From the NCBI RefSeq assembly GCF_004010195.1, contig NC_057718.1:91059353-91123352 (forward strand): a DNA stretch of 64,000 bases. The letters run 5' to 3'. This stretch comes from Chiloscyllium plagiosum (lineage: Eukaryota). The number at the start of each line of letters is the position of its first letter. The first letter of the stretch is position 1. A program made the position numbers and the translations under genes. The notes beneath the pieces are model-generated. The model was not told where the DNA came from, ran no database searches, and saw only the letters and a program-made list of their open reading frames with translations. Positions 345-56,600 of the stretch are shown here, piece by piece.

Positions 345-1145
345 ACACAGTTCTGGAGATGCTGGAGACCTGAAATAAAAATAAAGTGTTTTAGAAACCG
401 AGTCATCTGGCAGTGTCAGTGAAATGAGAAACAAAGTCAACATTTCATTTCAAAACGTCACTTCTTCAAAATTAAAGGGGGGCTATGAAAGGTGTTTTTT
501 AATTATGTTGACAAAGGGGGAGGAAGAGCAAATGGAACAGCTAGCAAGGGGTGCCAGAGTAAAAGGGAAAAGGAGTACTAATGGTAGTTGAGGAGAAATC
601 TAGATGCAGAATAGATGTTAATAGCAGAAAATAGGTCCCTGTTGAGAAAAAACATGACACTTGAGTTGGGGGTAACCAAAATCGAGGACTTTGTTTATGG
701 TCTGAAGTTGTTTGAATGCAATGTTGAGTCATGAAGGCTATAAAGTACCTAATTGCATGCTTTTCCTCCTGCTTTCATTGGGTTTCACTGGAGCCATTCA
801 GCAAACCTCAAACAGAAATGTTAGCACGAGAGCAAGATGGTGTATTGGAATGGAAAGCGACTGTAAGATCAGGGTCATTCTTACAGGCAGGGGGGTGCCT
901 GAGGAAGTAGCAGGGGCTCCAAAAGTTTGTGCTTTCAAATAAACTTGTTGGACTATAACCCAATGTTGTGTGATTTTTGACATTGTTCCACTAAGTGATC
1001 ACCCACTCTGCATTCTATCTTGCCACTGAAGAAGAGACCGCATTGTGAGCAGCAGGTGCACTAGACTAAATTGAAGGGTGTACAAGAAAATTGATGTTTC
1101 ACCTGGAAGGTGTGTTTGTGGCCTTGGAAATGGAGGACAGAGGAA
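345..1145 (-). mobile_element. Decayed Penelope-like retroelement 3' part (GIY-YIG endonuclease remnant plus terminal region)
   Basis: The minus strand gives QGHKHTFQVKHQFSCTPFNLV*CTCCSQCGL and LGTL*PS*LNI, resembling the PLE GIY-YIG region. The terminus resembles other PLE ends in this window. Confidence 0.7.
890..990 (+). mobile_element. Nested terminus of a second Penelope-like family with a decayed hammerhead-like motif
   Basis: CCTGAGGAAGTAGCAGGGGCTCCAAAAG followed by AAATAAACTTGTTGGACTATAACC...TGTTGTGTGATTTTT. A related scrap lies at about 22050-22090. Confidence 0.5.
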
Positions 1146-2200
1146 CTTTGAGTTCAAGAAGAGTTTCGGAACTGGTAGAAGTTAGAGAAATAAGGAAGGG
1201 AAAAACCATTAAGAAATTTGAAGAAGAGAATAAGAATTTTCAATGGCAGGGGGATGGAAGACCATGGGTCAATATAGCTTGTTGCGGACATGAATGAGAG
1301 ACTTTGTTTTGGAAAACTTACGGGCAGCACATACAATTTTTTAAATTGGAAACATTATACTTCATAGTCTTGCCATTTCTAAATTCTTTATCAAATGGAT
1401 CCAATTACAACACTTAACACTATTAATAGTTAACCTGGAGCTTTCCACCAAACTGAATATGTCAACATGATGGACTGCCATCATCTTGTTACTTGTGTTT
1501 TTCTGCTCATGTTTGTTGGTAAACATCAACTGGATCCAAACACCCCATACAATGCATGGCAACATCAGGTCATAAGTCATTATCGCTCAGCTAACTTGGA
1601 GTGCATATAACATGGGATCATTATTCTAGGAGTCAAGTAAAAGGTGAGAAGACTCTAAGTGGCAGAACTTGGATAGCAATATAAATATTGTCACATCTTT
1701 TGATTTATGGAATCATGAAATTTTAAAGCATTAATGGGCCCAATTTAGTTCACTACGTGGTGCATTTGTTCCCTTGAGTGACGAATCCACTCTGCCATTC
1801 CTTCACAAGCCTTTGTCCAGTCAGCCTTATCTAATCCTTCCTCAAACTTCATTTTTAAAGTGATTATTGTTTCTAGCAGGCTTTAAATATCCCGAGTATG
1901 GTCTACTTAAAACTATTTATATTTGTTCATTTGATGCTGATCTTAGTTGTTGCCTTCCAAGTACTACGTCACCAACCACTAAGTTTTTTTCCTTAATGTT
2001 TATCTTATAAAAGCTACTCGTAGGTTCGAGCAAATGACCTCTCTGTTCTAGTGAAGAGTCTTAGTTTCTCAGATCCCTGCCCCCCAAAAAAATAGGTTTT
2101 AATCCAGCCTCTTTTTAGAAATGAGAAGGCAAATGGATATATCAATATCTGAATCCTTAATTCTGCCTGATCTTTTGAAACTTTAGCAATTTGGTGATTT

Positions 2201-2222
2201 CCCCCCCCCCCCCCCCCCCCCC
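2201..2222. repeat. C22 homopolymer
   Basis: Run of 22 C read directly. Confidence 0.95.
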
Positions 2223-2321
2223 ACATCTTGTACACAGTAGGATCTCTGAGGAAGAGTCATCTAGACTTCAAACGTTAGCATGCTGTCTGACCCACTGTGA
2301 TCACCAGCATTTCTTGTTTTT

Positions 2322-2485
2322 AGCTGAAAAATGTGTTGCTGGAAAAGCGCAGCAGGTCAGGCAGCATCCAAGGAGCAGGAGAATCGACGTTTCAGGCATA
2401 AGCCCTTCTTCCTGAAGGGCTGCGCTTTTCCAGCAACACATTTTTCAGCTCTGATCTCCAGCATCTGCAGTTCTCACTTTCTCCT
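2322..2485 (+). mobile_element. Fold-back Penelope-derived mini-insertion, nested in another PLE terminus (about 2240-2320)
   Basis: Perfect 32-bp inverted arms at 2322-2353 and 2419-2450. Imperfect 15-bp direct repeats ATTTCTTGTTTTTAG (2309-2323) and ATTTGTTGTTGTTAG (2486-2500). Confidence 0.75.
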
Positions 2486-3099
2486 ATTTGTTGTTGTTAG
2501 TTTGTCTTATAACTAGCTGCATTAAATTTCATCCAATAACTATTTGCCCGACCCTTCAATGAATGATCTCACTGCCTGTTATATTTTAACAGTTGTGATG
2601 CTGTGTCCTGTATATCAGAGTGTAGGTCACTTTTATGCCTATATACTGAGAAGAGAGGTAATGTGAACATTGACCCCTGAGGCTAGCCTTGTTTATAGGG
2701 CTGCCAAGCATCCATTGCCTGCTCATCTGTTTTCTATCCACACTGTCACATACCTGTCAACATCATGCACCTTAATGTTATGAACCGGCTCCTTGTTCTC
2801 CAACCTGCCTGGTGCTTTTTAAAAATCCAAAACACGTGACCTGCTCTAAACTCTGTCACGAAGAAAGTTTGTTATCCCCTCAGAGGACTGTTAAGATTGT
2901 ACAAATTTTGGCCTTTTATAAAGTTTTGCTGGTTGTCCAAAATTAAACTTTGCTTTTGTAGGTGGTTAAATTATATCGTGTTTTACAGCTGTCAGAAGCC
3001 TAGCTATTACCAGTGTTAGGCTGACAGATCTAAAGTGAGTTGTTTAGTTGTTTTTGAACCTATGAAAGCAGTTCGACATACCAAAAATAAGAGGATAAC

Positions 3100-5811: not shown

Positions 5812-5923
5812 ATCTTCCTCGTCCGGAGATCATGCAGGACACAGAAGAAAATTATATCAATGCGTTTGCCTGAGTCAGGGTCTCGCTTTGTTCAAGATTT
5901 TCCAATAAAGGAGAGCCAGTATA
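5812..5923 (+). CDS. RIN2: RIN2 coding exon (SH2 domain; IFLVRRSCRTQKKIISMRLPESGSRFVQDFPIKESQY). First RIN2 exon visible in this window
   Basis: cag acceptor at 5809-5811, gtaagt donor at 5924, 112 nt, phase 0 to 1. The translation resembles RIN2 SH2 (IFLV..S...QKK..S.RLP.....F.IKES.Y) and joins the 19274 exon in frame. Confidence 0.93.
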
Positions 5924-8624
5924 GTAAGTACACTCCAATTTATTCTAATATCTTTGAAAGTATGGTCAAAATGTAAGATATTGTCATCAAAAGATGCACG
6001 TGAAGTACTGTGAAAATGTTCTTTTTCTGTATTGTGGCTTTTTGGAAATGTAATCATCTTTCATTGTTAAAATATTTGATTTTCTATCAAGAATGTGCAA
6101 CACAGAAACAGGACATTACTCCAACCAATTGATATCGGCTTATAATGCTCCACTCCAACCTCTTTTAGTCTTTCCTCATCTAATTCTATCAGCATAATCA
6201 GCGTCCCTGATATGTTTAATCTAGATCCCACTTTAATGTACCTTTACTATTTTTCTGAGTTAGTCCTTGATATAGTGAATTCCACTCTATCACCGTGGTC
6301 TTATTAACAAGAATTGCTATCTATTACAGGTAAATTGCTACAATCATGAGCCATCAGCATATGACTGTACTAATTAAAACCCAGTCCTCTTATACACTTC
6401 TCTTTACATAAAACACAGGCATTGGGGCAAAAAAGGGGTGTTAAGAATGGAAGGAAAGCAGGGACAACATTTACTGGTGCTTTATATGGTGCTGTGAAGT
6501 GGCATGAAATACTGATGGATCTGCTCCTGTAACATAAAGGATGAGACATCGGTCACATAGAACTGAAGAGTCCAATTCCCTTTTGGCTTTCTTGGTGACT
6601 ATTCTGTTTATGACTTCTGATGCAGCTCGCTCTCACAGGTAGATGAACTCTGTGTCTGTTTTATCAAATCCTTTCATAACTTTTAAGATTTCCATTAGAT
6701 TATTGCTCAGCCTTCTCCCTTCAAGCAAGAAAGAAATCATCCTGTCTGTCCTCTCCTGTTTGGTGTAAACTCATCATTTTGTTATCAGTTTCCTAAATGG
6801 AGGCTTATCTATCCCACACTATCTCATCCCTGAAGTGGCTCCATGTTGCCCCAGGCAACCAGATGCTTCACAATCGATCTGTCTAATATTGTAATACAGA
6901 TTTAAGAGCAACAGGTGAAGAAAGATCAGGATATCTGGAGAATGCCATTTTAGTTTCCTGACTGTGGATGAGTTGGTGGCTTGCTCAATCATGTTAAGCT
7001 CTACATGTTCCCAGTGTAAAGACTGTGCCTTTTCATTCTTCCATACTTTTATCAGGGGACTGGAAAGAGAAAAGTGCTGTTTTAATGACCAAGGAGTGGC
7101 TGGGGGATTGCTGCATCGTCTGACACTCATTGTAAAAGGATTTACACAGCTTCTTGTTCGAAAGCTGGTTAAAGTATAATTGCAGGAAAACTGGAACTGA
7201 AGTGTTGTGTACAGATGGAGTTTTGGTTGGTACAATTAGCAGATTGGTCTATGGACTAGTGAACAATTATTGATGGCAATGGTCTTCTGTTCACCAACAA
7301 CAGTCTGGTTCTCAGTTTAACAGCTTGTGACTTTGTACAAGATTGACTGCCACCAGCTCAGGAGCTCTCTGTCTGTCTCTCTGTTCTCTGCAGTAAAATT
7401 ATCTCTAAGCCTGAAGAAAACCAGTTTATCTTTCCTCCAGTAAATGATGTAAGCTGTGACTTTTACTTTGAGTCAGAGACCTTTTTATAAGCGAACCAGC
7501 CTCTCTATGCATCTTGAAAATCAGACCCTGGAGAAGGAAGAACATGATCAACACAGGATCCATCTCAGCTGAACTTGTGGACAGAGACAAAAGAACTGCT
7601 GTCCCTGCTTTCCTTCCACCCTTAACACCCTTTTCATTTCATGCCTGAGTTTTATCTAATGTGAAGTGCAGAAGGGCATTAGAGTTTTGGTTATTAGAGT
7701 TAAATGCCGATGGGTCACAATTGTTTCCTTGTAATAGACAGTAATTCTTGCTAATTGTAATTCTTGTTCAGTTCAGAAACCTGATCTATGCTTTCTGGTT
7801 CTGAAATATATGTAAATTGAGGAATTTTGTGTACTTTTTAAAATCTTTAGCTTTTGGGTTGACTCTGGGAACAGTGGGGCCTTATTTCTAGCACACTATC
7901 CCAGTGAAATGTAACACAAGCCGGAAAGGTATTTGGCCATATATTAAGGTTTTTTTTATGGTATCTCCTCCTATTGTTCAAAAGGATAATGCCATGTGAC
8001 ATATGGAGATGATCTTTCAGTTTGTGATCTTCCAAGTAACATACCCTGCTGACATAGAAACATACCACAGTTCCTTCTTGATTGCTGGGTCAGAATTCAA
8101 GAACTCCCTTTCTGATAGGATTATAAGGGTGTTTTCCACACAGGGATTGCAGCAACTCATGAAGAAAGCTCACCACAATCACCACTCCGGGCAACCAGCG
8201 ACGATCCATAAATGCTGCCTTTATCAGTAAAAGCTACACATCATCTCAAGAGTGAATTTTATCGAGTAATTTGTGTTTATTGACAACGTCCAGGAAACTT
8301 AGTCATGTGGCATCCAATCATCTATCACTGCTCATGTTTATCAGGCAATTGCTTGCATTTTATTTGTCCACTGTTTGCAAATGTTATTACACTTACCAGA
8401 TGTGGGTGTTTCCATATCTCAAACCCTGAACAAACCATTTGTCTGTTTAATAGTATGATGAACAGACGTAATTAGTAGAACAGACAGCTGTATGGACAAG
8501 CAATGTAAATAAAAAATACATCTGTGATGCTTCTCCCGTTATCAATCGCAAGGAATCTGCAGCAATTAAATAAATCCATCATTAATTTCAGTAATTTACA
8601 ACTGTCACAGCACAGAAACAGATA

Positions 8625-11600
8625 AGTGAGTATTTTTAAGTGTGGTCTTACAGTAAGCCTGCACTAATGAGTAGAGTGGGTTCTTTCTTGATTATATGTT
8701 TTATTGAGATATGTCTCTTGATTAAAATTACTTAAATAAGCCATAAGTGTTAAGCTAGCCTGGAGCAGTATTTTGCAGAGGAATAAGACAGTGCTATTTT
8801 CTGGGTCTGTAGATTGAAAGAAGCAAAAATGGCCTTTAGTAGAGTAATATGCTCTTGTTGGATGTGGGAGTTTAGGAAAAGATTACCGGTTACTGAGGAT
8901 TATATCTGCAATAAATGCCATTGGTTGCAAATCCTATCAGATTGAATGGATCGGTTGGAGAGACAATTAGAGGCAATGAGGAATTTACAAGAGCAAGGGG
9001 ATGTGATGGATGGCAGTTATAGGAAGGGAGAAAAGTTGCAGATACAGTCACGTAGATGTGTTAGCTCCAGGAAAGGTAAGAGTGTTGGCAGGAGTCTTCT
9101 GTGGCTATCCACATTTCAAACAAGTATGCTGTTCTGGAAAATGTAAGGGGTGATGGATTCTCAGGGGGACATAGCACGAACAGCCAAGTTTCTGGTATTG
9201 AGACTGGCTCTAATGCAATGAGGGGTACGCCGGGTTCCAAAACATCAACTGTGTTAGGAGACTCTCTTGTCCAAGGGACAGACAGACATTTCTGTGGCCA
9301 GCAATGAAACATCAGAATAGTGTATTGCCTCCCTGGTGCCAGGATCAAGGATGTCTTAGAGAGGGTGCAGAATGTTCTCAAGGGGAGGGGGCCCAGCTGG
9401 AGGTCATTGTCCACATTGGAACCAATGACATAGGAAGGGAAAAGGATGTCATTCTGAAGAGAGAATATAGAGTTAGGCAGGAATTAAAAAGAGAGATCCT
9501 TGAGAGTAGTCATATCTGGATTACTCCCAGTGCTACGAGCTAGTGAGGGTAAGAATAGGAGGATAGAGTAGATGAATGCATGGTTGAGGAGCTGGTGTAT
9601 GGGAGAAGAATTCACATTTTTGGATCATTGGAATCTCTTCTGGGGTAGAAGTGACCTGTACAAGAAGGACGAATTGCACCTGATTTGGAAGGGGACTAAT
9701 ATACTGGCAGGGAGATTTGCTAGAACTGCTTGTGAGGATTTAACTATTAAGGTGGATGGGTGGGATCCAGGGAGATAGTGAGGAAAGAGATCGATCTGAG
9801 ACAGTTGAGAAAAGAAGCAAGTCAAACAGTCAGGCTGGCAGGGACAAAGCAGCGAACAAGATAGGATTGATGAATTAAACTGCATTTATTTCAATGCAAG
9901 AGGCCTAACAGGGAGGGCAGATGAACTCAGGACATGGTTAGGAACATGGGACTGGGATATCATGACAATTACAGAAATGTGGCTCAGGGATGGACAGAAT
10001 TGGCAGCTTAATGCTCCAGGAAGGGCAGAAAAGGAGGCAAGAGAGGAGGGGGGACTTGCGTTTTTGATAAGGGATAGCATTACAGCTGTATCGTGGGAGG
10101 ATATTCCCAGAAATACATCCAGGGAAGTTACTTGGCTTGAACTGAGAACTAAGAAAGGGATGATCACCTTATTGGGATTGTATTATAGACTCCATAATAG
10201 TCAGATGGAAATTGAGGAACAAGTTTGTAAGGAGATCACAGTTATCCTTAAGAATGATAGAGTGGTCATGGTAGAGGATTTTAACTTTCCAAACATAGAC
10301 TAGGACTGCCATAGTGTTACGGGCTTAGGTGGAGAGGAATTTGTTGTGTGTGTGTACAGGAAAATTTTCTGATTCAGTATGTGGATGTACCTACTAGAGA
10401 AGGTGCAAAACTTGACCTACTATTGGGAAATAAGGCAGGGCTGGTGACTGAAGTATCAGTGGGGGAGTATTTTTGGGCCAGCGACTATAATTCTATTAGT
10501 TTTAAAATCGTGGTGGAAAAGGATAGACCAGATCTAAAAGTTGAAGTTCTAAATTGGAGGAAGGCTAACTTTGACGGTATTAGGCAAGAACTTTCAAAAG
10601 CTGATTGGGGGCAGATGTTCGCAGGTAAAGGGATGGCTGGAAAATGGGAAACCTTCAAAAATGAGATAACCAGGGTCCAGAGACAATATGTTCCTCTTAG
10701 GGGGAAAGGAAAGGCTGGTAGATATAGGGAATGCTGGATGACTAAAGAAATGGAGGGTTTGGTTAAGAAAAAGAAGGAAGTATATGTCAAGTATAGACAA
10801 GATAGATCATATGACTCCTTAGAAGAATATAAAGGCAGTAGGAGTATATTTAAGAGGGAAATCAGGAGGGCAAAAAGGAGACATGAGATAGCATTGGAAA
10901 ATAGAGTTAAGGAGAATCCAAAGGGTTTTTACAAATACATTGAGGACAAAAGGGTAACGAGAAAGAGAATGGGGCCCCTCAAAGATCAGCAAGCTGGCCT
11001 TCGTGAGGAGCCGCAGCAGATGGGGGAGATTCTAAATGAGTATTTTGCATCACTGTTTACTGTGGAAAAGGACATGGAAGATATAGAATGTAGGGAAATA
11101 GTGATATCTAGAAAAATTGTCCATATTACAGAGGAGGAAGTGCTGAATGTCTTGAAACACAAAAAAAGTGGATAATGATCAGGTGTACCTGAGAACTCTG
11201 TGGGAAGCTAGGGAAGTGGTTTCTGGGCCCCTTGTTGAGAGATTTGTATCATCGATAGTCACAGGTGAGATGCTGGAAGACTGGAGGTTGGCTGACGTAG
11301 TGCCACTGTTTAAGAAGGGTGGTAAGGACAATCCAGGGAACTATAGACCAGTGAGCCTGATGTCGGTGGTTGGCAAGTTGTTGGAGGGAATCCTGAGGGA
11401 CAGGATGTACAGGAAAGGCAAGGACTGATTAGGGATAGTCAATATGGCTTTGTGCGTGGGAAATCATGTCTCACAAACTTGATTGAGTTCTTTGAAGAAG
11501 TAACAAAGAGGATTGATGAGGGCAGAGCAGTAGATGTGATCTACATGGACTTCAGTAAGGCGTTCGACAAGGTTCCCCATGGGAGACTGGTTAGCAAGGT

Positions 11601-13390
11601 TAGATCTCATGGAATACAGGGAGAAGTAACCGTGTGGATACAGAACTGGCTCAAAGGTAGAAGACAGAGGGTTGTGGTGGAGGGTTGTTTTTCAGACTGG
11701 AGGCCTGTGACCAGTGGAGTGCCACAAGAATCAGTGCAGGGTCCACTACTTTTCGTCATTTATATACAGAGGAGCCTCGATTATCTGAGCGAGATGGGTG
11801 GGCACTATTTTGTTCAGATCACTGAATATTCCTTTAATTGATTCAGTGCCTTTCCTCTGGGGCTCGGAGTTTTCTGTAAAGTCTGCTCCCTGTTCAGGAG
11901 ATAAGGCAGCATCACCGCGCACGAGCCCCTGCACCCCATCCACCCCACCAACCCTAACCTCATCAAACACCACCCCCCACCCCCCATGCGGCCCCCAGTG
12001 TGACCCGCCCCCTCTCCGGGGCAGCCAGACTCGACACCAACAACAAGACTGTTGCTGCTGCTACTGCCTTTTAGGGGGTGAGTCTCCAAATACCGCACTC
12101 ACGCAACTTTTTACTGCAACTTTTTGACAGGTTCCACCTTTACCCAGTACAGGACAACGTTCTGGGGAAGGAGGGGGTTTAGGATACACACCTGTGTAGA
12201 ACTCCAGGCAAAGTGTGGAAAGAGAGGGAGAGAGTGTGGGAGGTCAGTCATTTATAGATGGTGCCTGCTGTCCCATCAGTCCAGGACTGTTCTTGGCAGC
12301 ACTTTTAATCACTGTAAACAAAAGATGCGATCAGTGTCGGACACACCTCTATGATTTAATGTTTCTGTCGGGACCTCTAGATCTCCTTTGGATAATCCAA
12401 TTTTCGGATAATTGGTATTCAGTAAATGATTTGGATGTGAGCATAAGAAGTATAGTTAGTAAGTTAATAAGTTTGCAGATGACACCAAAATTGGAGGTGT
12501 CGTTGACAGTGAAGAAGGTTACCTCAGATTACAATGGGATCTTGACCAGATGGGCCAATGGGCTAAGAAGTGGCAGGTGTAGTTTAATTTAGATAAATGT
12601 GAGGTGCTGCATTTTGGGAAAGCAAATCATAGCAGGACTTATACACTTAATGGTAAAGTCCTAGGGAGTGCTGCTGAACAAAGGAACCTTGGAGTGCAGC
12701 TTCATAGCTCCTTGAAAGTGGAGTCACTGGTAGATAGGATAGTGAAGAAGGCATTTGGCATGCTTCCCTTTATTGGCCAGAGTATTGAGTACAGGAGTTG
12801 GGAGGTCATGTTGCGGCTGTACAGGACATTGATTAGGCCACGTTTGGAATACTGTGTGCAATTCTGATCTCCTTCCTATCAGAAGGATGTTGTGAAACTT
12901 GAAAGGATTCAGAAAAAATTTAAAAGGATGTTGCCAGGGTTGAAGGATTTGAGTTATGGGGAGAGATTGAATAGGCAAGGGCTGTTTTCCCTGGAGCATC
13001 GGAGGCTGAGGGCTGACCTTATAGAGGATTATAAAGTCATGAGGGGCAAGGATATGATAAATAGACAAAGTCTCTTCACTGGGGTGGGGGTGGGGGGGAG
13101 GAGTCCAGATCTAGAGGGCATAGGTTTAGGGTGAGAGGGGAAAGATATGAAAGAGACCTAAGGGGCACCTTTTTCACGCAGAGGATGCTACATGTATGGA
13201 ATGAGCCACCAGAGGAAGTGGTGAAGGCTGGTACAATTGCAACATTTAAAAGGCATCTGGTTGGATATAAGAATAGTAAAGATTTAGAGGGATATGGACC
13301 GGGTGCTAGCAGGCGGGACAAGATTGGGTTGGGATATCTGGTCGGCATGGACAAATTGAACCAAAGGGACTGTTTCCATGCTGTACATCT
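8625..13390 (+). mobile_element. Near full-length decayed CR1 (HER1-like) LINE. ORF1 has a Cys-rich N-terminus, coiled coil and SGNH/GDSL esterase-like domain; ORF2 has APE endonuclease and RT. Interrupted at 11767-12422
   Basis: ORF1 remnants from ATG near 8829: ICSCWMW..., LGDSLVQG, IVHIGTNDIG, DELHL. ORF2: YFNARGL, ITEMWL, DFNFPNID, NYRPVSL, YMDFSKAFDKVPH, GVPQ, FADDTK, LEYCVQF and a CR1 3' tail. Many stops and frameshifts. Confidence 0.93.
11767..12422. mobile_element. Non-autonomous Tc1/mariner (Tigger/pogo-like) element inserted at TA within the CR1 RT
   Basis: CR1 LFVIYI|NDLD is split. The left end reads TA|CAGAGGAGCCTCGATTATC. The right end has repeated GGATAAT motifs, then TA, then CR1 resumes. 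The right TIR is partly deleted. Confidence 0.72.
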
Positions 13391-14784
13391 CTTTGCACCA
13401 TTTTATGATGACAATTCAGCGCATGTGTGATAAAAATAATAAGTAAAAATATTTTAAATCATACCTAATTTAATACATTGGTTCTCACATCCCAATACTG
13501 ATGCTCAGCTGCTTTAGTGTTTTACACGTCTGAAAAAACAGTTCAATTGACATTGTGTGCCTATGTACAATGATGTATACCTGTTTGGGATTTCATTTCT
13601 TCGGAAAAAGGAGAATGTTGTGTTAAGACTCACAGCCGATATGTGCCTTTAAGCATCTTAACCATATTATGGTTAATTTCATGGAAGTTGACCTAATGAT
13701 TTTAAGCTTACAGCCCCCATCTTACTGAATTATGTCCTCTTGCATGACTTACTAAAGGAATTGTGCTCCAGTACACGCAAGTTGCTTGACTTGAACCCAG
13801 ACACACAGATGCCTGTGATTGTAATGTACATGTGTAGATACCAGGCACTCTAACAAAAGCTAATTGAACCGTTCAGTACTATGTGACCCACATCTCATCC
13901 TTAAGTTACAGGAGCTACTGAATAGTGTGACAGTGGCTGCGCCATCAGTATTTCATGCCACCTCACATCGTGGCTACAGCACTATATAAAACACCAGTAA
14001 ATGCTTAGAAGAGAGTCTCATTTGAAGGTTAGACATCCCTGGGTCATAAGATGCCTACCCACAATAAATTTACATGATTATGGAACATCACCCGAATAAG
14101 CAAAAGGCAGACCTGCGCTGTCAACTTCAAGTTCAAGAGCTTTCAATCTGTAAAACCCGTATTGCTTTCGCAAAAAGAAACAATGTTTCAGCCTGCTGCA
14201 ACATAAAAGATAAGATGCTGCGTCAAAAGGCTTTTTGTGGGTTTGGGAGTAAAATTGTTGGCTAAACAGCTTCTTACAATCTTAAAATTAACATTGACAG
14301 TCACTGTTGGCTTAACTACTGTGCCTTCCCGTTCAAACTAAAAATTGATTTTCCAACCTAGAGCTCCTTACCTTTGTACAGTGGTCGGTTGGCTCTGCCA
14401 TTTTGTGTCCTTTAATTCAGTGCCAGAGGCAGTGTGATGCCAGTATCCCTTATTTGGTGAAAACATACCCCTAGTGGTCATAATCTGCCATTACATCCTT
14501 TAAAGAAACAGTCTTGCACTTAATAAAACCTCTTTAAGAGCCCAACAATGATGATTTTATGAATGACAGCAAGACATTTTCAGGAAGAATAACTGAGAAC
14601 TACATACACATTTCTCCATCTGGGCATATATTCACTAGATTGAGATATGGCGTCAAACCTCCAAAATGTAATATTGAAATTTGAATGAATTAATCTTGTT
14701 ATCTGTTTTTATATGTCCGAATAATGATTAAATTGGCACTTGTTGCCTATGCACAGTGATGTATAGCTCTTTGGGATTTCACGT

Positions 14785-16075
14785 AGAGTCATTGAGTCAC
14801 AGCACGGAAAAAGACCCTTCAGTCTGACTCGTCCCTGACCAAGTTCCCCAGTCTCAGCTAGTCCAACTTGCCCGCATTTTCCCCATATCCCCCTAAACCT
14901 TTCAAGTTCAAATGGCTTTTCAATGCTTGAACACTACCTGCACCCTTCCTTTCATAGTTTATTACATGTACAAACCACCCTCTGTGTGGAAGAAGTTGCC
15001 CCTCAGGTCCATTTTAAATCTTTTTCCTTTCACATTAAAAATATGGTCCAAGTTTTGAACTCCCCCACTCAACAGAAAAGACCTTCTGTATTCACCTTAT
15101 CCATGCCCCTCATGATTTTATAAACTTCTGTAAGGTCGCCTCTCAACCTCCTATGCTCCAGTGATAAATGTCACAGTTTCTCCTTATAAATTCCAGTTAC
15201 AGGAACATCTGGTAAATCTTTTCTGAATCTTCTCCAACTTAATAATATTCTTTCTATAGCAAGGAGACCTGTACACAGTACTCCAAAAGTGGCCTCACCA
15301 ATGTCCTATACAGCTTCAACATGAAGTCTCAACTCCTATACTCAATGGTCTAAGAAATGACGCCAAGCGTGCTAAACACCTCTTAAGCACACTGTCTATC
15401 TGTGACACAAATTTCAAAGAACTTTATACCTGAACTCCTAGGTGTGTCTGTTCCACAAGACTACCCAGAGCCCTATGTTGAATGTATAAATCCCACCCTT
15501 GTTCATTTTACTAAAATGCAATACCTTGCATTTATCCAGTTTAACCTCCATTGCCACTCATCAGCCCATTGGCCCAATTGTTCAAGAGCTCTTTGTAATC
15601 TTAGGTATCCTTCTCTGTCCACTATACCGTCAACTTTTGTGTAATCCACAAACTTAGTAACATGCCTTCTAAATTCTCATCCAAATAATTTATTTAAAGG
15701 CAAACAACAATGGACCCAGCACCGATCCTTGCGGAACACCACTGGTCACAGGCCTCTGGTCCAAAAAACAACCCTCCGTCACCACTGTCTGTCTCCTACC
15801 ATCAAGCCAATTTTTAATCTAATTAGCAAGCTCTTTGAATTCCATGTGATCTAACCTTACTGATCAGTCTACCATGCGGAACCTTGTCAAAAGCTTTACT
15901 AATGCCCATGTCAACAATGTTTACTGCTCTGCCTTCATCAATTTCTTTTGGTTACATCCTCAAAAAAATATATCCCTAATCAGTCCTTGCTTCTTCAAAT
16001 GCACGAAAATCCTGTCTCTCAGGATCCCCTCCAATAGCTTGCCCACCATTGATGTCAGACTCACCAGTCGATAGT
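14785..16075 (-). mobile_element. CR1 LINE 3' fragment (RT C-terminal part plus tail), degraded
   Basis: Reverse complement resembles the 11300-13390 CR1 region. Confidence 0.85.
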
Positions 16076-16784
16076 CCATACTCCTTGAAAAAAGGAGATT
16101 GTTGTGTTATATCTCGCAGCAGAAGTGTGATATACCATTAAGAGACATGCTCATGATGTCATCATGGCTACGTGTCAGGTGCCTCAAGGGTTTGTATAAC
16201 TCTGTCTCCACCTTTTGAGCTTCATTCTCTTGCAGCATGACATACTGAGGGACTTATGCTCATCATATCTTGCTTAGCTTGATCCTATACAAGTCCAAAA
16301 TTATAATGCGTATATGGAGATATTGGGTGCTGTATCTAAAGCTCATTGAACTGTTCAGTCTTACATGACCTACATCTTGCCCTTGCTATGGGAGCTACTA
16401 GAACTATCACAGTCTGATAGTGGCATATCCAGTAGGTCAAACCATCTCATGTCAGCTTCATGGAGGTGAGAGCCTATTCTCAAAGAATTAAGTACTGAAA
16501 TTAATCTCCAGGTCTTTCTCAGGCTTACAGGAACTACCCCTCCCTGCAATTTGTTTCCTTCCATCCTTGCAGTTTGTTTGCTCACCCCTTCTTTGTTCCA
16601 ATCTGTGTTTTTTTAATTCTGTCATTCCCCCAATTTTGTAATTTTCTGTCTATCACTGATGTTCCCTCTCCAGTTTGAGATTCTCTCCCTCCCTCAGTTT
16701 GGATTGCCTTCCCTTCATTCCTGCCGCCATCAGTTTGTATTTTTCTCTTTCTTTTCCTGACTTGCTCTCTGAGGACCCGATGTG

Positions 16785-18185
16785 AATATTGAGTCACAAT
16801 TAATTAGAATGGACGGCTTTGAGGTATGTAGGGAGGAGGTGTTGGAAATTCTGGAAAGGGTGAAAATAGATAAGTCCCCTGGGCCTGATGGCATTTATCC
16901 TAGGATTCTCTGGGAAGCAAGGCAGGAGATTGCAGAGCCATTGGCCTTGATTTTTATGTCCTCGTTGTCTACAGAAGTAGTGCCAGAAGACTGGAGGCTA
17001 GCAAATGTGGTTCCCTTGTTCAAAAAGGGGAGTAGGGATAACCCTAGTAACTATAGGCCGGTGAGTCTCACTTCTGTTGTGGGCAAAATCTTAGAGAGAA
17101 TTGTAAGAGATAGGATTTATGAACATCTGGATAGGAATAATGTGATCAAGGATAGTCAGCAAGGTTTTGTGAAGGGCANNNNNNNNNNNNNNNNNNNNNN
17201 NNNNNNNNNNNNNNNNNNNNNNNNNNNNNNNNNNNNNNNNNNNNNNNNNNNNNNNNNNNNNNNNNNNNNNNNNNNNNNNNNNNNNNNNNNNNNNNNNNNN
17301 NNNNNNNNNNNNNNNNNNNNNNNNNNNNNNNNNNNNNNNNNNNNNNNNNNNNNNNNNNNNNNNNNNNNNNNNNNNNNNNNNNNNNNNNNNNNNNNNNNNN
17401 NNNNNNNNNNNNNNNNNNNNNNNNNNNNNNNNNNNNNNNNNNNNNNNNNNNNNNNNNNNNNNNNNNNNNNNNNNNNNNNNNNNNNNNNNNNNNNNNNNNN
17501 NNNNNNNNNNNNNNNNNNNNNNNNNNNNNNNNNNNNNNNNNNNNNNNNNNNNNNNNNNNNNNNNNNNNNNNNNNNNNNNNNNNNNNNNNNNNNNNNNNNN
17601 NNNNNNNNNNNNNNNNNNNNNNNNNNNNNNNNNNNNNNNNNNNNNNNNNNNNNNNNNNNNNNNNNNNNNNNNNNNNNNNNNNNNNNNNNNNNNNNNNNNN
17701 NNNNNNNNNNNNNNNNNNNNNNNNNNNNNNNNNNNNNNNNNNNNNNNNNNNNNNNNNNNNNNNNNNNNNNNNNNNNNNNNNNNNNNNNNNNNNNNNNNNN
17801 NNNNNNNNNNNNNNNNNNNNNNNNNNNNNNNNNNNNNNNNNNNNNNNNNNNNNNNNNNNNNNNNNNNNNNNNNNNNNNNNNNNNNNNNNNNNNNNNNNNN
17901 NNNNNNNNNNNNNNNNNNNNNNNNNNNNNNNNNNNNNNNNNNNNNAATTAAGGGTTGGTAGGTATAGGACAGATGTTAGGGGTAGGTTCTTTACTCAGCG
18001 AGTCGTGAGTTCATGGAATGCCCTGCCAGTAGCAGTGGTGGACTCTCCCTCTTTATGGGCACTTAAACGGGCATTGGATAGGCATACGGAGGATAGTGGG
18101 CTAGTGTAGGTTAGCTGGGCTTGGATCGGCGCAACATCGAGGGCCAAAGGGCCTGTACTGCGCTGTATTTTTCTATGTTCTATGA
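16785..18185 (+). mobile_element. Relatively young CR1 RT fragment spanning an assembly gap
   Basis: Open frame DKSPGPDGIYPRILWEAR...NYRPVSLTSVVGK up to the Ns. A CR1 3' end with (TATGTTC)-type tail follows the gap. Confidence 0.88.
17179..17945. other. Assembly gap (767 N)
   Basis: Run of N read directly. Confidence 0.99.
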
Positions 18186-32025: not shown

Positions 32026-32179
32026 GTACAGTATTATTTTACTAAGCTGTGCATTAAAACATCAGTTAATGTATGCCTTTAACATGCTAGGCCAAGGTCA
32101 ATTAAGGACAAGTGGCATAGAATTGTGAAAGACAGGTAATGCCTAACCAAATGAATAAGCTTGACTCTGCAATAAAGGG

Positions 32180-39099: not shown

Positions 39100-39266
39100 G
39101 TGGCTATTATCTGACCAGTGTCTATGGAGCCCTCTCACTAATAAAGAATTTCCAAGAGGACCAGGCGGCCAAGTTATTGAGCTCACAAACCAGGAATACT
39201 CTAAACCAGTGGCACAAGAGAAGGACCGCAGACAGCAGAACAGCTCCTTCAGTTGAAGACTTCCAA
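39100..39266 (+). CDS. RIN2: RIN2 coding exon (VPS9 C-terminal part; GGYYLTSVYGALSLIKNFQE...WHKRRT...PSVEDFQ)
   Basis: tag acceptor, gtacgt donor, 167 nt. Carries the VPS9 YYLT motif. Confidence 0.96.
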
Positions 39267-39378
39267 GTACGTCACTTTGGGCAAAATGCATGATGGATAT
39301 TGATTGGAGTGCATTTTACAAATTAAATCCATAGCACAAAGTTCTTTTAGTTTTGAAAGAAACAAGTATTCCAGAACA

Positions 39379-39597
39379 GAGAGTGGTGCTGGAAAGGCAC
39401 AGCCGGTCAGGCAGCATCTGAGGAGCAGGAGAATCGACATTTCAGGCATAAAAACCCTTCATCTGGAAACCCTTCCTGATCAAGGGTTTATGCCTGAAAT
39501 GTCGATTTTCCTGCTCCTCGGATGCTGCCTGACCGGCTGTGCTTTTCCGGTATCACACTCTCAACTCTGATCCAGCATCTGCAGTCCTCACTTTCTC
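39379..39597 (+). mobile_element. Fold-back Penelope-derived insertion with a 16-bp TSD
   Basis: About 90-bp inverted arms. Flanks CAAGTATTCCAGAACA (39363-39378) and CAAGTACTCCATAACA (39598-39613). Confidence 0.8.
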
Positions 39598-40209
39598 CAA
39601 GTACTCCATAACACCCTGTCATTTTACTGAGATGACTTACCATGTGTATGTCTCATGTGATTTATTCCAGTTTACATTGTTTTATCACACATTGATGTTC
39701 TCCAGTCTTTTCCAACACTGCACACCCAACTCCATGTATTGAAATTTGGGAAGAGCAGCCTTTAACATTTAGTGAATTCATAAATGTTAAATGGAACGCT
39801 ATGGTATAGATTGAGCATGTTAATAGATCTCCTAGCTATACTATTTAAAGAAGCTGAAAACATATACCTTATGGAATAGTCCTTGTGGATTCAATGATCC
39901 AATGGAACTTGGATTACTATAGTCCACCTACTTGTTATCAAATAGTTTAACTGGACACAAAGGATTTGGATGTGGAAGTGGGACAATTCTCAATACGGAT
40001 GACTACCAGGTAACCTGTACAGTAGTCTTTTCATGCTTCAAGGTATTTGCTAATAGAGTGTTTCACTTGTGAAGTTTGTAGCTACAATCAAATCCAAAGT
40101 GGTTTATAAGCAATCAAATATAGTTTTCGATAAGCTGCAACCTTATACCTACAAAGTGCCATTCAATAACGACTCCCTTTCTTTTCTCCTTTTATCCCGA
40201 TCTGTACAG

Positions 40210-40545
40210 AACTACCTGCGCGTGGCCTTCAACAACACGACAAGTGGCTGCACAGCCAAGACCTTACTGGTAAGACCATTTACGACAACAGAGGAGCTGT
40301 GTGACCTCTGTGCTGCCAAATTCCAAGTTCAGGACACTGAGAACTACAGCCTCTTCCTCCTTATTAATGACACCTGGCAGCAGTTGGCTCCTGATACCTT
40401 CCCGCAGAAAATCAAGGCAGAGTTGCATAGTAGGCCTCAGTCCCAGATGTTTTACTTTGTCTACAAGCGCCTTCACAATGACCTTCCCAGCAATGCCCTT
40501 GAGCACAGCAACGCGGCTTCGGAAGAATGCAGCGTCACATCTTAA
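40210..40545 (+). CDS. RIN2: RIN2 last coding exon (Ras-association domain; NYLRVAF...SGCTAKTLLVRP...WQQLAPDTFPQKIKAELHSRPQ) ending in TAA
   Basis: Pyrimidine tract plus cag acceptor, 336 nt to stop. The eight exons sum to 2241 nt (747 codons) with no internal stop. Confidence 0.96.
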   Translation, partial: NYLRVAFNNTTSGCTAKTLLVRPFTTTEELCDLCAAKFQVQDTENYSLFLLINDTWQQLAPDTFPQKIKAELHSRPQSQMFYFVYKRLHNDLPSNALEHSNAASEECSVTS

Positions 40546-46438: not shown

Positions 46439-46474
46439 GTTCTGAAGAAGGGCCACTGGACTTGAAATATTAAC
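46439..46474 (+). ncRNA. Candidate minimal hammerhead-like motif in a PLE terminus
   Basis: GUU-CUGAAGA-AGGGCC(ACU)GGACUU-GAAAUAUU-AAC. The core boxes are intact, stem I is 3 bp and helix III is the palindrome AUAU. PLE tail CAAGATGCTGCCAGACCTGC follows. Confidence 0.45.
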
Positions 46475-47987
46475 TCTACTTTCTCTCCAAGATGCTGCCA
46501 GACCTGCTATTTCTTTTTTGCTTCTGATGAGCCCCTTGGATGTTTACTGCTCAAGTGCCCCAGTACTGACTGGAGAGCTCATCCCCCTCCTCTTGGTGCG
46601 GACAGCCAGGACTAATTGCGGTTGTAAAGTCTTGGAGGACTAAACATAGAGAATGTTCCCTAAGCCTTCAAGTCTATGCCAGTCAAAACTAACTATTCTA
46701 ATCCTATTTTCCAGCTGTGGGACTGGCTGTGGACCATTCCCCAGATCCTGGTCACACCGAGTGCCTGACTGACCAGGGCCAACAATCTGAACCAATAGTG
46801 GATGATGAGTGTTAAATATGTATTCATGCATGTATGCAGGAGAGATATCCCAAAAAGACTTGCAGCTCAAATGTCGTTGCAATCATAAAGATTTCGTATT
46901 ATTTTTACAGAGAACAAGCTTCCAACTGACTATTCTGACAGGTAATAATTTCCTGTAATCGAAAGGTTTATTCACCCCATCTACACCCTAATCTGTGAGT
47001 GCATGACTGTATCATCAAATCATATTCAAACTGACACAGGGGAGTATAACCCAATCATATTCAAACTACTGCATGTGATTGTATTAACCAATCATATCAT
47101 TGTATGTTTACATCTCAAGCTGTTGGTACATACTTTGTGATTCCAGGAAACTTGCACTGTTTGATTTCCCCCTTTCAGTCCCTCATAGTTCCTCTATTGT
47201 CTGTTTCCCTTTGACTCTAATTACCGTTTGAAATGGCCTGGAGAGATATTCAGTTCAAGGACGGTTAGGAATATGCAGCAAACACAGGAATGAAAAAGCT
47301 TGTTGAGAAACATCAAATTAGATTTATTTAATATTGTGACTTGTACCCAGGGTACAGTGAAAAGTGGATAATGTCACCAAGTTCTTCCACCATCTTGGAT
47401 TACTGAATGAATGGTAAAACGCAGAATACATTTATTTTAAATTGATCTACTAACACCGAAACAGCTTCAAAGGTTCGTCTTTCTCTCTCTGTAGACTTCA
47501 CCCTCTCTGATGGTCATCACCATCCAACATCCCCAGAGTCCTGGTAACGTGCCCCTTTTCTGCCGCCACTAGTGCCAATTGCTTCCACATCCGTTGCCTA
47601 CAAGCTGCGTGGGTCCTGCTGCCTTCTCCAATGTTGACATTGACTGGCGGCTCCTGGCTCCGAGTCGATCGACGGTGTCCTGGCTCGTCTTCTGGTGTGG
47701 AAACCGGAGATGGAACAGGGATGGAGATACGGAGGGCCGCATGCCTCCAGTAGGAAAACATCAGGATAATGCCCCAGGGCAACCAAAATCATAAATAAAA
47801 ACTAACAAAGCTACTGAACTGACAAGGCAATGATGAAACCATGTGGATGTGGCTGGACCCATCCATGAGTAGCCAAGCCCCATGCTCAGGATCTGAACAC
47901 TGCCATCCCCCTTGTTGCCATCTTGGAGAGAATGTTATTTATGAATGGAAGTTCTTTTCTCAATAGAGTGAAAGCTGATTTTTTTAA

Positions 47988-53000: not shown

Positions 53001-54249
53001 TTAGACAAAAGAATGTACGATTCAGCCTTCCCGATGACTGTGTAAACGGCTTACCCAAAATCCATGCTTAATGACAGCTTCTTGTTGAGCTCATAGCAAG
53101 TGCTTTTTAATGACTCATTAAGAAATGCCACCCAGGTTCTTTGAAGCAGATGTGTTTGTATCTGCTTCCTTCATTTCTTTGGTTTGAGTCGGCCTATATT
53201 AAAAAGTCATGTTGAAAATTGATCCCAGTTATATGTGTTCCCTTTTCTGACATTTATTAAAAATAATGTATTAAAGCAGTGATATTGTTTTACCTACTGT
53301 TAAAGTCCATTTGCAAGTTATTTCTAACTGCCTATCTTATAATAATTGTCAGTTACTGAAGAGAATATGTGACAGCAGTTCTTGTTATCAGCATCAAAGA
53401 CTTGCAGTTCATATGTCACATCAAAGGATCATTGAATAATATTGTTCCCATTCTCAAAAATATTTGCATTCTGATAGGCTCCCTTCACTGTGCCAGTAAT
53501 GTGAGTAATTGTTATTTAGAGTCATACAACTCAGAAATAGACCCTTAGGTCCAATTCATCCGCGCTAATCAGACACCCCATTCATTAATACAAAAACAAC
53601 TTGCATTTATATGACACCTTTTAATGCAGATAAAGAATGGGCCAGTCATGTCAGAGAGGTGCTATTAAGAAAGCTACAATTGCCAAGTGCTAACGAGTTT
53701 TTCAAATAAAGCTTAATCAAAGAAAGAGCTTTTAAAGGGGTGCTCAAAATACAGTGAAACAGTGTTGAGTCAAATTCAATGACATTGATCTCCTGTTGTA
53801 TTGAAGCTGTCAGTCATTCTCAGAGCTGTAAAACAAATTCTGTTGTACAATGGCTGGAATAAATTGAAGTTCTGTGTTGGTGATTCTGGATTAGCTGAAC
53901 TTGTGTAAACTTGTCATATGACTGTGCTGACCATGCAGAACGGCATTTGTGCCACACAGAGCGCAAAGTCATGAAAGGTGGAAATTCCAGCAGAGTGGAC
54001 CATGGAAACTAATGCAGAGGTGGGAAATGAAGAAAGCAGGCACAATCGCATCTGCTCTATGGGACTAAGGAGGAAGCACTTGTAAATGCAGTCTCCTGTT
54101 TAACTGAGGAATCCTGTAACCCTGAAGCCGGCCCATTCTCTAGCCTTTGCTCTTAGCTGAAGCTAGAAAGCTCATAGAGATTTTTCAGCATAGCCCAGGG
54201 TTTCATGCTTCAGCCCCAAAAACTGAAAATGTGTTTGACTGTATTAATA

Positions 54250-54560
54250 GGGAACGTGACAGCCTAATGGTATTATCACTGGACTGCCAATGCAGAGAAC
54301 ATGGGAATGTTCTGAGGACCCAGGTTTGCCACGGCAAATAGTGGAACTTGAATTCAATAAAAAATCTAGAATTAAGACGCAATTGTTGGAAAAAACAGTC
54401 TGATTCATTGATGCCCTTTAGGGAAGGAAACTGCCATCTTACCTGGTCTGACCTGCAAGTGACTCAAGACAGCAATGTAGTTGACTTTTAACTGCCTTCT
54501 GGATGGGCAATAAATGCTGGCCTAGTCAGTGACTCCCCTATCCCGTGAATGAATAAAAAA
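54250..54560 (+). mobile_element. SINE of a second family sharing its tail with the 37380-38665 LINE family
   Basis: Degenerate tRNA-like head, central CCCTTTAGGGAAGGAAA...CTTACCTGGTCTG and tail GGGCAATAAATGCTGGCC...GAATGAATAAAAAA. Confidence 0.6.
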
Positions 54561-55589
54561 AGGACCATCCAAAGCAGTACTCTAACCACAGAACAATGAC
54601 TGTGCTTTTGCAACCTAACTCTCAACATTTTTCAATACCTTTTACGAGGTCAGGCTTATCTTAAGCAGAAAAGTTTTAGCAGGTGAAACCCATAATTTAT
54701 TGGAATTTGGAAGAATGAGGGGTTGCAGTGGTAGTGTCCCTACCCTTGGATTGGGAGGCCCAGGTTCAAGTCCCACCTGCTCCAGAGGCATGTAATAACA
54801 TCTCTGAACAGGACTTTTTTTTTAGAAAAAGAGAACGAGGGATATTTATAATGAAGTAGATAAGATTGTGAGGAGATAAGGCAGTGCAGATACCCAGATA
54901 ACGTTTCTTCTTTAAAGTGAAGTCCAAAATGAGGGGATGTATTTTAAGAATAAAACAGAGATGAGAATTTTTATTATCTTTCAAACAGTTGTTTGAGTAT
55001 GGAATTCCCTTTCGCAGAAGTTGGTGGAAGCTCAGTCTTTGAAATTACTCAAGGTCAAGTTAGATAGGTGTTTAGGTTGACAGGGAATCCAGGGCTTATG
55101 GGGTGCAAGAGAAAGCTGAGCTGAGACCAAAACAGCATCAGCATGATCATACTGAATGGCGGAACCAGCTTGAATGGCCAAATGGCCTACTCCTAACTTC
55201 TATGTTCCGATGGGACACTACTGAGCTCGGTAGAGGGTAGGCCAGGAGGTGGTTTATAAGGATCAGAGTTTTGAATTAAAGTCTCAATAAGGACTGGGTG
55301 ATGAATGACGGACTTGGGACTTCCGATTTACAAGAAGCCGTAAAAACTTTGAGCCTTAGCTATGTGGCACCAGGATCCTTCCAACAGATCTTAATTTCAC
55401 TGGGAGTACAGGATAGGATTCACATGCATGGGAAACCCCAATGCAGCAGGGCTATTTGAGTGCTCAGATCAAATAGGTCCTGTTTTTGGCTGGAGCAAGT
55501 TCTGCTGTTTGCTGTGTGAGATTTTCAATTGTTAAGAGATGCGAGTATGCATAAAAAGTGACTCAAACGCTTTAAGTGTCCTTACATAA

Positions 55590-56600
55590 AACTGGAAAAA
55601 TCACAAAACAAACTCAGCAGGTTAGCCGAGAGAGAAGCAGTTAAAATGTTTTATAGCTGTGGCCTTTCACCAGAGTGGTAAGAAACTTTTCGAGATGCGA
55701 TAGGTTTTGAGTAAGATGTGTGTGAGGCAAGGATGAAACAAAGGTCCACTGTAGGGTCAGAACCTGGAGACAGTGAAATGACAAAAATGTTCATCATACA
55801 GAGCCAAAAAGAGTGGGGATGGAGCAAGAAAAGAAACAGTTGTGTCTGAACAAGTGAGCTGCTAACTGAAAAATTAAAAAACTGGAACACGCAGAGAGAA
55901 GCAAACAAAATACGTGATGGAGTTGATGGTCTGAAATTGTTGAACTCATTATCAAGTCCAGAATGCTGTAAAGCATTAAATTGAAAGTTTATGTTAAGCC
56001 CTATTGGAGAATTAAAATGATAGGCCATTGGAAGCATAAGCTGTAAACATAATGAAGGGATTCCACAAAGCATCAGCCAATCTGCACTTTGCTTTCCCGG
56101 TGTAGAGATGACCACATTGTCAGCAGCAAATACAGGATGATAAATCGAAAGAAGTACATGTAAATCATATTGTTTCAGTTGAAAATAGTGTTCGGGGCCT
56201 TGGATGGTGAGGAGGCTGTGAGAAGCTATTTCTGCCAAGGCCGAGGTGAGATGTTTCCTGTCTCTATGCATCAGCCTTGGAAGTAGAAATCTGTTCACCT
56301 TGCTACTGATTAAGGGTATGGGCCGCAATGTTTTGGGTTTAAAGAGTGGAGAATGAAATTTGGCCAGGAAAGCATTGGAATGGTCACATTTGGAAGGTGA
56401 CAAAGGGTTTAAGCAACAAAAAGACAAGAGTCGGATCAAGATTTGGAAAAAGATGGTCTCCGTGATTGGTAGGTGGAATGGGACAACAAGATGAACCACA
56501 GTTGGTGTGCTGATTCGGAAGGTTAATGAGAGAGGAGGTGCAGCAGTCAGAATTACTGCTTGGAAGAAGCTAGCAATGTACATTTTCAGAAGTTGTTTGG
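55590..56600 (-). mobile_element. Old Penelope-like element remnant (GIY-YIG region plus terminus)
   Basis: IQGPEHYFQLKQ, MAYHFNSP and ALQHSGLDNEFNNFR match the PLE motifs at 345-1145 and 37606-38145. Confidence 0.7.

Follow-up and report, generated by a model that had tools for sequence, protein, structure and literature searches.

The window, a 64,000-nucleotide stretch of Chiloscyllium plagiosum DNA, holds a RIN2-like gene on its plus strand, within and beyond which lie repeats carrying hammerhead-ribozyme motifs. Coding exons are mapped at 5812-5925, 19273-19347, about 21757-21870, 22264-23286, 31719-32027, 35103-35240, 39099-39266 and 40207-40545; one further exon, upstream of the window, precedes those mapped (5812..40545). 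The coding exons contain the Pfam RIN1, VPS9 and RA domains, and the protein they encode is 100% identical to one named ras and Rab interactor 2-like.

The original prediction placed about ten minimal hammerhead-like motifs in the termini of Penelope-like elements (PLEs), scattered through the RIN2 introns. A CUGA-N-GA-like box followed by a hairpin is present at all ten named coordinates, and eight of them (899, 2246, 2412, 32195, 33271, 37692, 39476 with its mate, and 46442) share homology with repeat families that carry hammerheads, scoring against natural young copies above 200 shuffles. The other two, at 26426..26460 (plus strand; G12>A, without a recognisable tail) and 55645..55675 (minus strand; A6>G and G12>A), scored under the shuffle maximum (positions 26426 and 55673/55675) and had no BLAST match in 1.76 Mb of genomic loci; they are treated as unconfirmed look-alikes. 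As to location, eight named sites are intronic, whereas 46442 and 55675 lie 5.9 and 15.1 kb beyond the stop codon. Judged by homology, the motifs are mostly real, and the confirmed sites would be decayed 3'-end fragments of three PLE families.

Hammerhead-bearing copies in the window

The best preserved minimal hammerhead of the window (37661..37696, minus strand) belongs to a 5'-truncated family A copy at 37600..38180 on the same strand, in which a C-terminal GIY-YIG remnant (about 37866-38176), directly upstream of the motif, is followed by a 3' UTR, the hammerhead and a short tail (tblastn with PLE proteins, E 2e-15; translation; profile match, E 4e-27). Its C3 is at 37692, both boxes are intact, stem II has one G.A mismatch, and the GUU site gives a predicted cut between 37665 and 37664. 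Both boxes also survive at 33271 and at 46442, and nowhere else in the window, in agreement with the prediction that most copies carry a mutated core while those at 37661 and 46442 keep both. The copy at 46442..46520, past the RIN2 stop codon, is a plus-strand family D stub with a weak stem II and TA instead of CG at 15.2/16.2. That at 33177..33273 (minus) is an old family D-like stub with C at 16.2, in which a first GAAAC is followed by CU and a second GAAAC lies close by; the extended stem proposed at about 33231-33273 depends on this second GAAAC.

The remaining copies have lost part of the core. A family B stub at 899..996 (plus), broken by G12>A, sits between pieces of an older GIY-YIG remnant (796-1141, minus). 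The weakest confirmed site, a plus-strand family D-like stub at 2246..2325 with an internal deletion and G12>C, scored 43 against a null maximum of 35.5, yet has 14 BLAST matches in the same 1.76 Mb. A family A inverted pair covers 2294..2488 (both strands); its minus arm, at 2412, keeps stem II and GAAAC-GUC (2385-2411) without C3-U4, the point of the inversion junction. Another family A inverted pair, at 39378..39601 (both strands), has a target-site duplication of about 14 bp and carries G8>C in the plus arm and U4>A in the minus arm. Two family D stubs occupy 32195..32439, a plus copy at 32195 without the GAAA box and a minus copy at about 32432. Several copies or tails were absent from the original prediction (near 470, 26774-26875, 30164-30364, 32325-32439, 33594-33645 and 34592-34805), among them a family A palindrome made of tail only, which shows a 15-bp target-site duplication (26774..26875, both strands), a family A palindrome (30164..30364, both strands) in which the minus arm has its first box at 30284 and lost the second by a 13-nt deletion while the plus arm lacks the first, and an old inverted pair of family D whose cores are destroyed (34592..34805, both strands).

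The intronic position of eight named sites, together with the conserved intronic hammerheads described for amniotes in the available part of PMC6155905, might suggest a domesticated ribozyme cutting RIN2 pre-mRNA. This is extremely improbable: the core is broken at all five sense-strand intronic named sites (899, 2246, 26426, 32195 and 39476), the best-preserved intronic copy, at 37692, is antisense to RIN2, and family A density in the window is in keeping with the genome average (10 arms expected; 8 arms scoring over 15 seen from family A insertions). Because no intact core stands at a named sense-strand intronic site, an effect on RIN2 is unlikely, and the window copies are likely inert.

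The Rfam scan gave no hammerhead at the gathering threshold or at E<=10, either in the window or in seven loci with young copies, and a strict descriptor matched the window three times (mean 0.8, maximum 3 in 50 shuffles), which is not above chance. The same descriptor, applied to 870,523 random genomic bases, gave 96 matches versus 8-17 in five shuffles. Genome-wide, exact intact-core matches to three family patterns number 58,809, 15,205 and 2,566 (controls, 0), and two families, for which Rfam has no annotation, reach roughly 220 arms per Mb.

Architecture of the motif and its link to Penelope-like elements

The families were compared in an anchored pair table of nine natural copies taken as family representatives, which replaces a MAFFT-based alignment. 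The CUGANGA and GAAA boxes, with an NUH site, are invariant in all nine, and G10.1 is constant as well; an extra nucleotide (A or U) follows A9 in every representative, and the 10.1-11.1 pair is GC in eight and GU in one. Around this core the stems are rewritten: helix I, 3-4 bp long, differs among families A to D, its pairs reading CG/UA/AU, CG/AU/CG, AU/CG/GC or UA/UA/GC/AU. Two A subfamilies have a U.U mismatch in it, and the single F copy lacks the helix. The commonest subfamilies have a weak helix I, in which a U.U mismatch stands between two pairs and one pair. Positions 15.2/16.2 are palindromic without a loop 3, being CG in A, C, D, E and F and GC in B, a difference that reads as real covariation of the palindrome. 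Between families, stems I and II and the 15.2/16.2 pair covary, with a score of 0.36 versus 0.18 for shuffled alignments (none of 500 reached it) and above all slid controls; since MAFFT misaligned family B by one column, this test undercounts. MFE cofolds of monomers yielded no hammerhead dimer and are uninformative for helices so short. Loop II in family A contains a candidate start codon (ATG, GTG or TTG).

By its sequence the motif matches the minimal hammerhead architecture of Cervera and de la Peña (2014; PMC4209133). In the available parts of that article, the minimal hammerheads of metazoan PLE pLTRs share with the shark copies the type I core, the extra nucleotide between 9 and 10.1, G10.1-C11.1 and a palindromic 15.2/16.2 without loop 3, occur as many families per genome, and are mostly solo truncated copies, with opposite-strand pairs; they are known from fish Xena, Poseidon and Neptune elements. 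Helix II is shorter here (4-5 bp versus 7-8 bp in Schistosoma) and copy number is higher, the 58,809 exact cores of one subfamily group comparing with about 4,000 in coelacanth and 9,000 in Xenopus. No shark is named in the accessible portions of its text and supplementary file 2. The kind of motif being already published in 2014, the finding adds host and scale only.

In the literature searched we found nothing specific on shark PLE hammerheads or on 5' clustering of PLE copies; Lunse et al. (2017), Repbase/Dfam and supplementary material to PMC4209133 (file 1) and to a 2026 preprint may cover sharks.

Coding sequence ties family A to PLEs. The closest proteins show RVT_1 matches and weak GIY-YIG matches, and this genome (G000) holds 95,607 first-look GIY-YIG domain candidates. 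Among loci picked by an N-terminal RT piece, 13 of 20 have a hammerhead on the same strand some 2.7 kb downstream, with an assembly gap in between. In one tandem copy (L222) the order is GIY-YIG end, hammerhead and the next unit's Met 161 nt after C3, and the 60 residues beginning with this Met align to positions 1-60 in a full-length PLE protein (E 2e-11). An RT with a C-terminal GIY-YIG in a single ORF, flanked by a motif-bearing repeat, can thus be traced for family A in pieces, with assembly gaps. Long "ORFs" of 500-1000 aa from genome searches were rejected because they proved to be assembly gaps; the searches thus gave no intact element, and no gap-free full-length element was recovered among the loci examined. 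For family B, GIY-YIG or thumb matches lie upstream on the motif strand in two of 30 loci (L228 and L232, with L231 the same place as L232), and for family C, RT matches lie beside the motif in L182 and L184; the association with PLEs is thus shown for A and weaker for B and C. For family D no upstream coding sequence was found, and none of 30 copies share upstream sequence; its putative assignment to PLEs rests on a tail homologous to that of family A. With these grades, the expectation of three or more shark PLE families, each with its own minimal type I hammerhead and copies on both strands, was upheld by the family comparison. Family A translations contain a CX2-5CxxC linker between RT and endonuclease, a Neptune clade feature according to the available part of PMC8557442, and the putative Neptune label rests on this linker rather than on a tree.

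Another close described system is the hammerhead of PAc, an Anolis carolinensis Poseidon element (Frangieh et al. 2024, PMC11167929). The available part of that study describes the same core at a pLTR-ORF junction, two 3' end points bounding the tail, insertions from uncut RNA and an ATT-type target preference resembling the GAT(T) of the shark target-site duplications. PAc differs in that its ORF starts in stem II, whereas the shark Met matching PLE N-termini lies 161 nt after C3, and from family A also in the Neptune-type linker.

Copy ends, decay and the origin of the stubs

The 5' ends of the copies concentrate on helix I's front edge rather than on the cut site, which suggests that most RNA templates had not been cut and had their end at that edge. 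Arms starting at the cut site (+26 to +30) number 10 of 142 in family A and none of 49 in family B, a 9-nt upstream continuation is present in only 16,754 of the 58,809 perfect cores, and 109 of the 142 sampled family A arms lack element sequence beyond 25 nt upstream. The 3' ends of young copies (n=60) form two clusters about 35 nt apart, 30 at +88 to +95 and 18 at +123 to +126. Inverted arms are frequent (64/142 in A, 32/49 in B), and target-site duplications are common, with GAT(T) inside them. In the accessible parts of the relevant sources, PLE insertions likewise show 5' truncation, partial tandems, head-to-head palindromes, an optional 30-40 bp tail, target-site duplications and microhomology junctions (Arkhipova et al. 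2013, PMC3846280; Craig et al. 2021, PMC8557442); no report of a truncation peak at the hammerhead was found in these parts, nor a description of 5'-end clustering for PAc in the available part of PMC11167929.

The missing upstream sequence, in most family A arms and in all 30 family D copies, would also be expected if the 90-130 nt units were a separate non-autonomous family, SINE-like or retrozyme-like, using PLE proteins. Non-LTR retrozymes with a pLTR-related type I hammerhead are traced back to pLTRs, and reported in one chondrichthyan genome, in the available part of Li et al. (2026, 10.64898/2026.07.22.740005). They form head-to-tail arrays, whereas the shark copies are dispersed monomers or inverted pairs: no head-to-tail hammerhead array or tandem array of the short unit was seen in the window repeat scan, and one partial tandem, with 334 nt spacing, occurs in L160. 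Moreover, the 5' ends spread over -10 to +9 and further, the centres of inverted pairs vary from copy to copy, and long GIY-YIG copies carry the same subfamily letters, which makes a separate family improbable.

It is very probable instead that the confirmed sites are decayed 3' fragments of several PLE families with a minimal type I hammerhead motif in their terminal repeat; the candidate ribozyme of active elements would likely cleave only as a dimer or with an element protein, and the window copies are likely inert. Under truncation from PLEs, reverse transcription would begin internally, at either tail site of the RNA, as shown in vitro for PAc, usually copying 90-130 nt of uncut RNA; microhomology would join the product to the target, often creating a mirror arm. 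Inserted copies would then decay, fastest at CpG, with selection acting on the ribozyme in source elements and not on the host copies in the window.

The decay is visible in family A arms covering 15.2/16.2 (n=116), of which 70 have CG, 23 CA, 11 TG and 2 TA; in sampled arms CpG columns stand at 84% and the core at 96%. Among arms that include C3, 48 of 78 in family A and 15 of 32 in family B retain all 11 core positions. In the window, much of the stem described as variable but paired reflects decay after insertion, mostly at CpG; differences between copies of one family there are due to decay and not to compensation. Of the two helix III palindromes proposed, ACGU and AUAU, the palindromic 15.2/16.2 stands, and the AUAU of 46442 finds its simplest explanation in double CpG decay. 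In long copies, mismatches amount to 10/329 in the core versus 106/1574 in the tail for family A (p 0.011) and 6/110 versus 42/505 for family B (p 0.43); this somewhat better preservation of the core is in line with selection in source lineages, and some selection may also have acted after insertion.

Whether elements keep the motif for cleavage is a separate matter. The rarity of starts at the cut site is in line with a protein-binding, promoter or primer signal that cleaves rarely or never in vivo, as are the low activity in the available part of PMC4209133 and, in that of PMC11167929, the normal insertion of PAc catalytic mutants in vitro and the lack of RNA-seq reads ending at the cut site. 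We consider this rather unlikely, given that the catalytic positions are all invariant across families with rewritten stems and that the PAc hammerhead, of the same architecture, undergoes protein-assisted cleavage; it is compatible with truncation from PLEs as the origin of the copies. In a single-cell poly(A) run (X19, about 2% read), 1,857 reads matched a young copy (90% likeness) and showed no position at which many of them started or stopped, and a second run gave 0, the library being poorly suited.

Two ideas on the RNA 5' end were rejected. Copies that start at -4 have a G just before them in 58 of the first 100 matches, versus 16 of 100 for -3 starts (hand count), but it is not the cap-templated sign of a capped end: in 7 of 11 unique-flank copies it lies within the target-site duplication and is therefore target sequence. 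A spliced leader was dismissed as 26 A and 5 B unique-flank hotspot copies share no common flank.

A possible transcription start and function of the hammerhead

We tentatively propose, at somewhat under even chances, that transcription of these PLEs starts from an initiator-like CA on helix I's front edge, making the hammerhead the first structure of the RNA, and that internal reverse transcription from the nearby tail reaches the RNA 5' end within 90-130 nt and runs off it, giving rise to stubs and hairpins headed by the hammerhead in large numbers. If so, the stubs would map, as fossils, where PLE transcription started and which templates stayed uncut, and cleavage would be a switch removing a capped leader 133 nt before the ORF, not a maker of template ends. 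The junction statistics from tens of thousands of young copies bear on the function of the PLE hammerhead, and equally on the origin of PLE stubs and palindromes.

Hammerhead-like sites in the window and its host gene

A CUGA-N-GA-like box with a hairpin is present at all ten coordinates of the original prediction. Each site was aligned to young natural copies and compared with 200 shuffles, and eight (899, 2246, 2412, 32195, 33271, 37692, 39476 and 46442) were confirmed as homologues; 26426 and 55673/55675, which scored below the shuffle maximum and gave no BLAST match across 1.76 Mb of fetched loci, are unconfirmed. Profile searches found additional, previously unlisted copies in the window. 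A strict minimal-hammerhead descriptor matched the window only three times, where shuffled versions averaged 0.8 and reached 3 at most, so that the window by itself is no proof of the case; in a genome-wide sample of 90 evenly spaced 10-kb stretches (870,523 bases), the same descriptor gave 96 matches versus 8–17 in shuffled sequence. The proposed Rfam scan returned no hammerhead match in the window or in seven loci with young copies. Exact patterns matched the genome 37,526 and 58,809 times for family A (two overlapping patterns), 15,205 times for family B and 2,566 times for family D, with no match for the reversed control patterns; the window's family A density equals the genome average. 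At least three rarer hammerhead variants (E, F and G types) occur at loci L111, L146, L158 and L212 besides the four main families.

The host gene is RIN2-like (Pfam RIN1, VPS9 and RA), a 100% identical database protein being labelled bamboo shark Chiloscyllium plagiosum. Its coding exons start upstream of the window and end at 40545 on the plus strand, which places eight named sites in introns, as predicted, and 46442 and 55675 beyond the stop codon. The core is broken in all five named sense-strand intronic sites; among the intronic copies, the antisense 37692 alone combines both boxes with a normal cut site. Two near-perfect 200-bp Penelope-like element (PLE) palindromes, at 30164–30364 and 39378–39601, score below threshold as Rfam microRNA precursors; as part of a transcribed RIN2 intron, each would fold into a long hairpin. 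Translation and a repeat scan also revealed many LINE-type reverse transcriptase (RT) remnants and 3′ ends (9800–11850, 16770–18110, 24140–24960, 35680–36220 and 47980–49210), and a 767-base assembly gap lies at 17179–17945.

Penelope-like origin

The copy at 37692 forms a PLE 3′ end, with a C-terminal GIY-YIG remnant at ~37866–38176 on the same strand. The nearest database proteins to this domain, for which a first look gave 95,607 candidates in the shark genome, come from sharks and rays, with Pfam RVT_1 and weak GIY-YIG matches. Of 20 loci selected for an N-terminal RT piece, 13 carry a same-strand hammerhead ~2.7 kb downstream of it, across an assembly gap. A partial tandem at locus L222 runs from the endonuclease end through the 3′ UTR and the hammerhead to a Met 161 nt past C3 (the conserved C of the first box), and the first 60 residues from that Met match residues 1–60 of a full-length PLE protein. 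These observations uphold the predicted PLE origin for family A; the coding links of families B and C are weaker, and family D is joined to PLEs through its tail only. The CX2-5CxxC linker of family A, a Neptune clade feature in the consulted part of PMC8557442, points to that clade by motif rather than by tree.

At L222:5820–6170 (minus), the frame is open from hammerhead loop II through the tail to the ORF Met, and family A loop II carries ATG, GTG or TTG there. This recalls PAc, the Poseidon element of Anolis carolinensis, whose ORF starts in stem II according to the sections of PMC11167929 consulted. Two perfect family A cores, spaced 334 nt apart, form a natural partial tandem at L160:2235–2593 (minus). 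In the window, an older minus-strand GIY-YIG remnant (796–1141) is split by a family B copy (899–996), with a weak family D-like end further down that strand (~348–470).

The shark copies resemble the PLE hammerheads of fish, coelacanth, Xenopus and reptiles in architecture, in the many families per genome, in solo truncation and in opposite-strand pairs, as far as the consulted portion of Cervera and de la Peña (2014, PMC4209133) describes them; its text and searchable supplement, to the same extent, contain no sharks. They also share the inverted pairs and tails that, with palindromic junctions, are standard PLE traits in excerpts of PMC3846280 and PMC8557442. The literature searched contained no paper on shark PLE hammerheads, and part of a 2026 preprint (Li et al.) describes related retrozymes in one chondrichthyan. 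Apart from its two unconfirmed sites, the original catch is correct, and of a known kind: the motif class was already described, and the shark is a further host.

Covariation between families and decay within them

In nine natural representatives aligned on both boxes, every core position is constant, and helix I, helix II and the 15.2/16.2 pair of palindromic helix III are rewritten between families (15.2/16.2 is CG in A, C, D, E and F, and GC in B). The covariation score was 0.36 versus 0.18 for shuffled alignments (0/500) and above all slid controls, in an automatic alignment that shifts family B by one column and whose related rows are not independent. The proposed stem covariation holds between families and was overstated within the window, changes within a family being mostly decay. 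The 15.2/16.2 pair reads CG in 70, CA in 23, TG in 11 and TA in 2 of 116 family A arms (single copies or halves of inverted pairs) selected by tail. The AUAU at 46442, originally taken as a helix III palindrome, fits CpG loss instead, as does GCCU at 2412. All 11 core positions are intact in 48 of 78 family A arms covering C3, likewise selected by tail, and in 15 of 32 from family B. Mismatches in core versus tail were 3.0% versus 6.7% in long family A copies (p 0.011) and 5.5% versus 8.3% in long family B copies (p 0.43). We read the lower core mismatch as constraint in the source lineages; some selection after insertion is also compatible with it.

Copy ends and the RNA template

The 3′ ends of 48 of 60 young copies gather at ~+90 and ~+125 from C3, two clusters that make up the PLE tail signature. 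The 5′ ends gather at the ribozyme front: with each insertion counted once, 56/113 (family A) and 20/34 (family B) begin between −10 and +9, at per-base rates of 0.042 and 0.041, versus 0.003–0.006 on either side. Only 10/142 family A arms and 0/49 family B arms begin at the cut site. Among 58,809 perfect family A cores, the match is lost before −3 in 9,978, before −4 in 9,692 and before −5 in 4,482, and only 16,754 match to −9, point mutations explaining part of this loss. Reads and contigs have loose ends at −4 in three runs, and none of 30 family D copies share upstream sequence. All nine family C copies reach further upstream, so the clustering is not universal. Genome-wide, families A, B and D show it at the leading edge of helix I, no more than ~10 nt from C3 (L101–L190, L283–L312). 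In copies beginning at −4 (L283–L312), GAT(T), which matches the element's ATT, is often inside the target-site duplication, reflecting target preference and microhomology.

PAc reverse transcription begins in vitro at the tail, inside uncut RNA (PMC11167929, in part), and by analogy shark PLE reverse transcription would start likewise. Cleavage by the shark hammerheads is predicted from their family. The stop at helix I may have two sources. Stalling, together with microhomology to GAT(T) targets, is one possibility; an RNA 5′ end at a CA resembling the initiator consensus is another. The Penelope repeat has an internal promoter, according to the part of PMC2377424 consulted; a cap-derived G, tried as a sign of such an RNA end, gave no support for it. 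Tentatively, and at somewhat less than even confidence, the stubs may represent a map of PLE transcription start and uncut templates.
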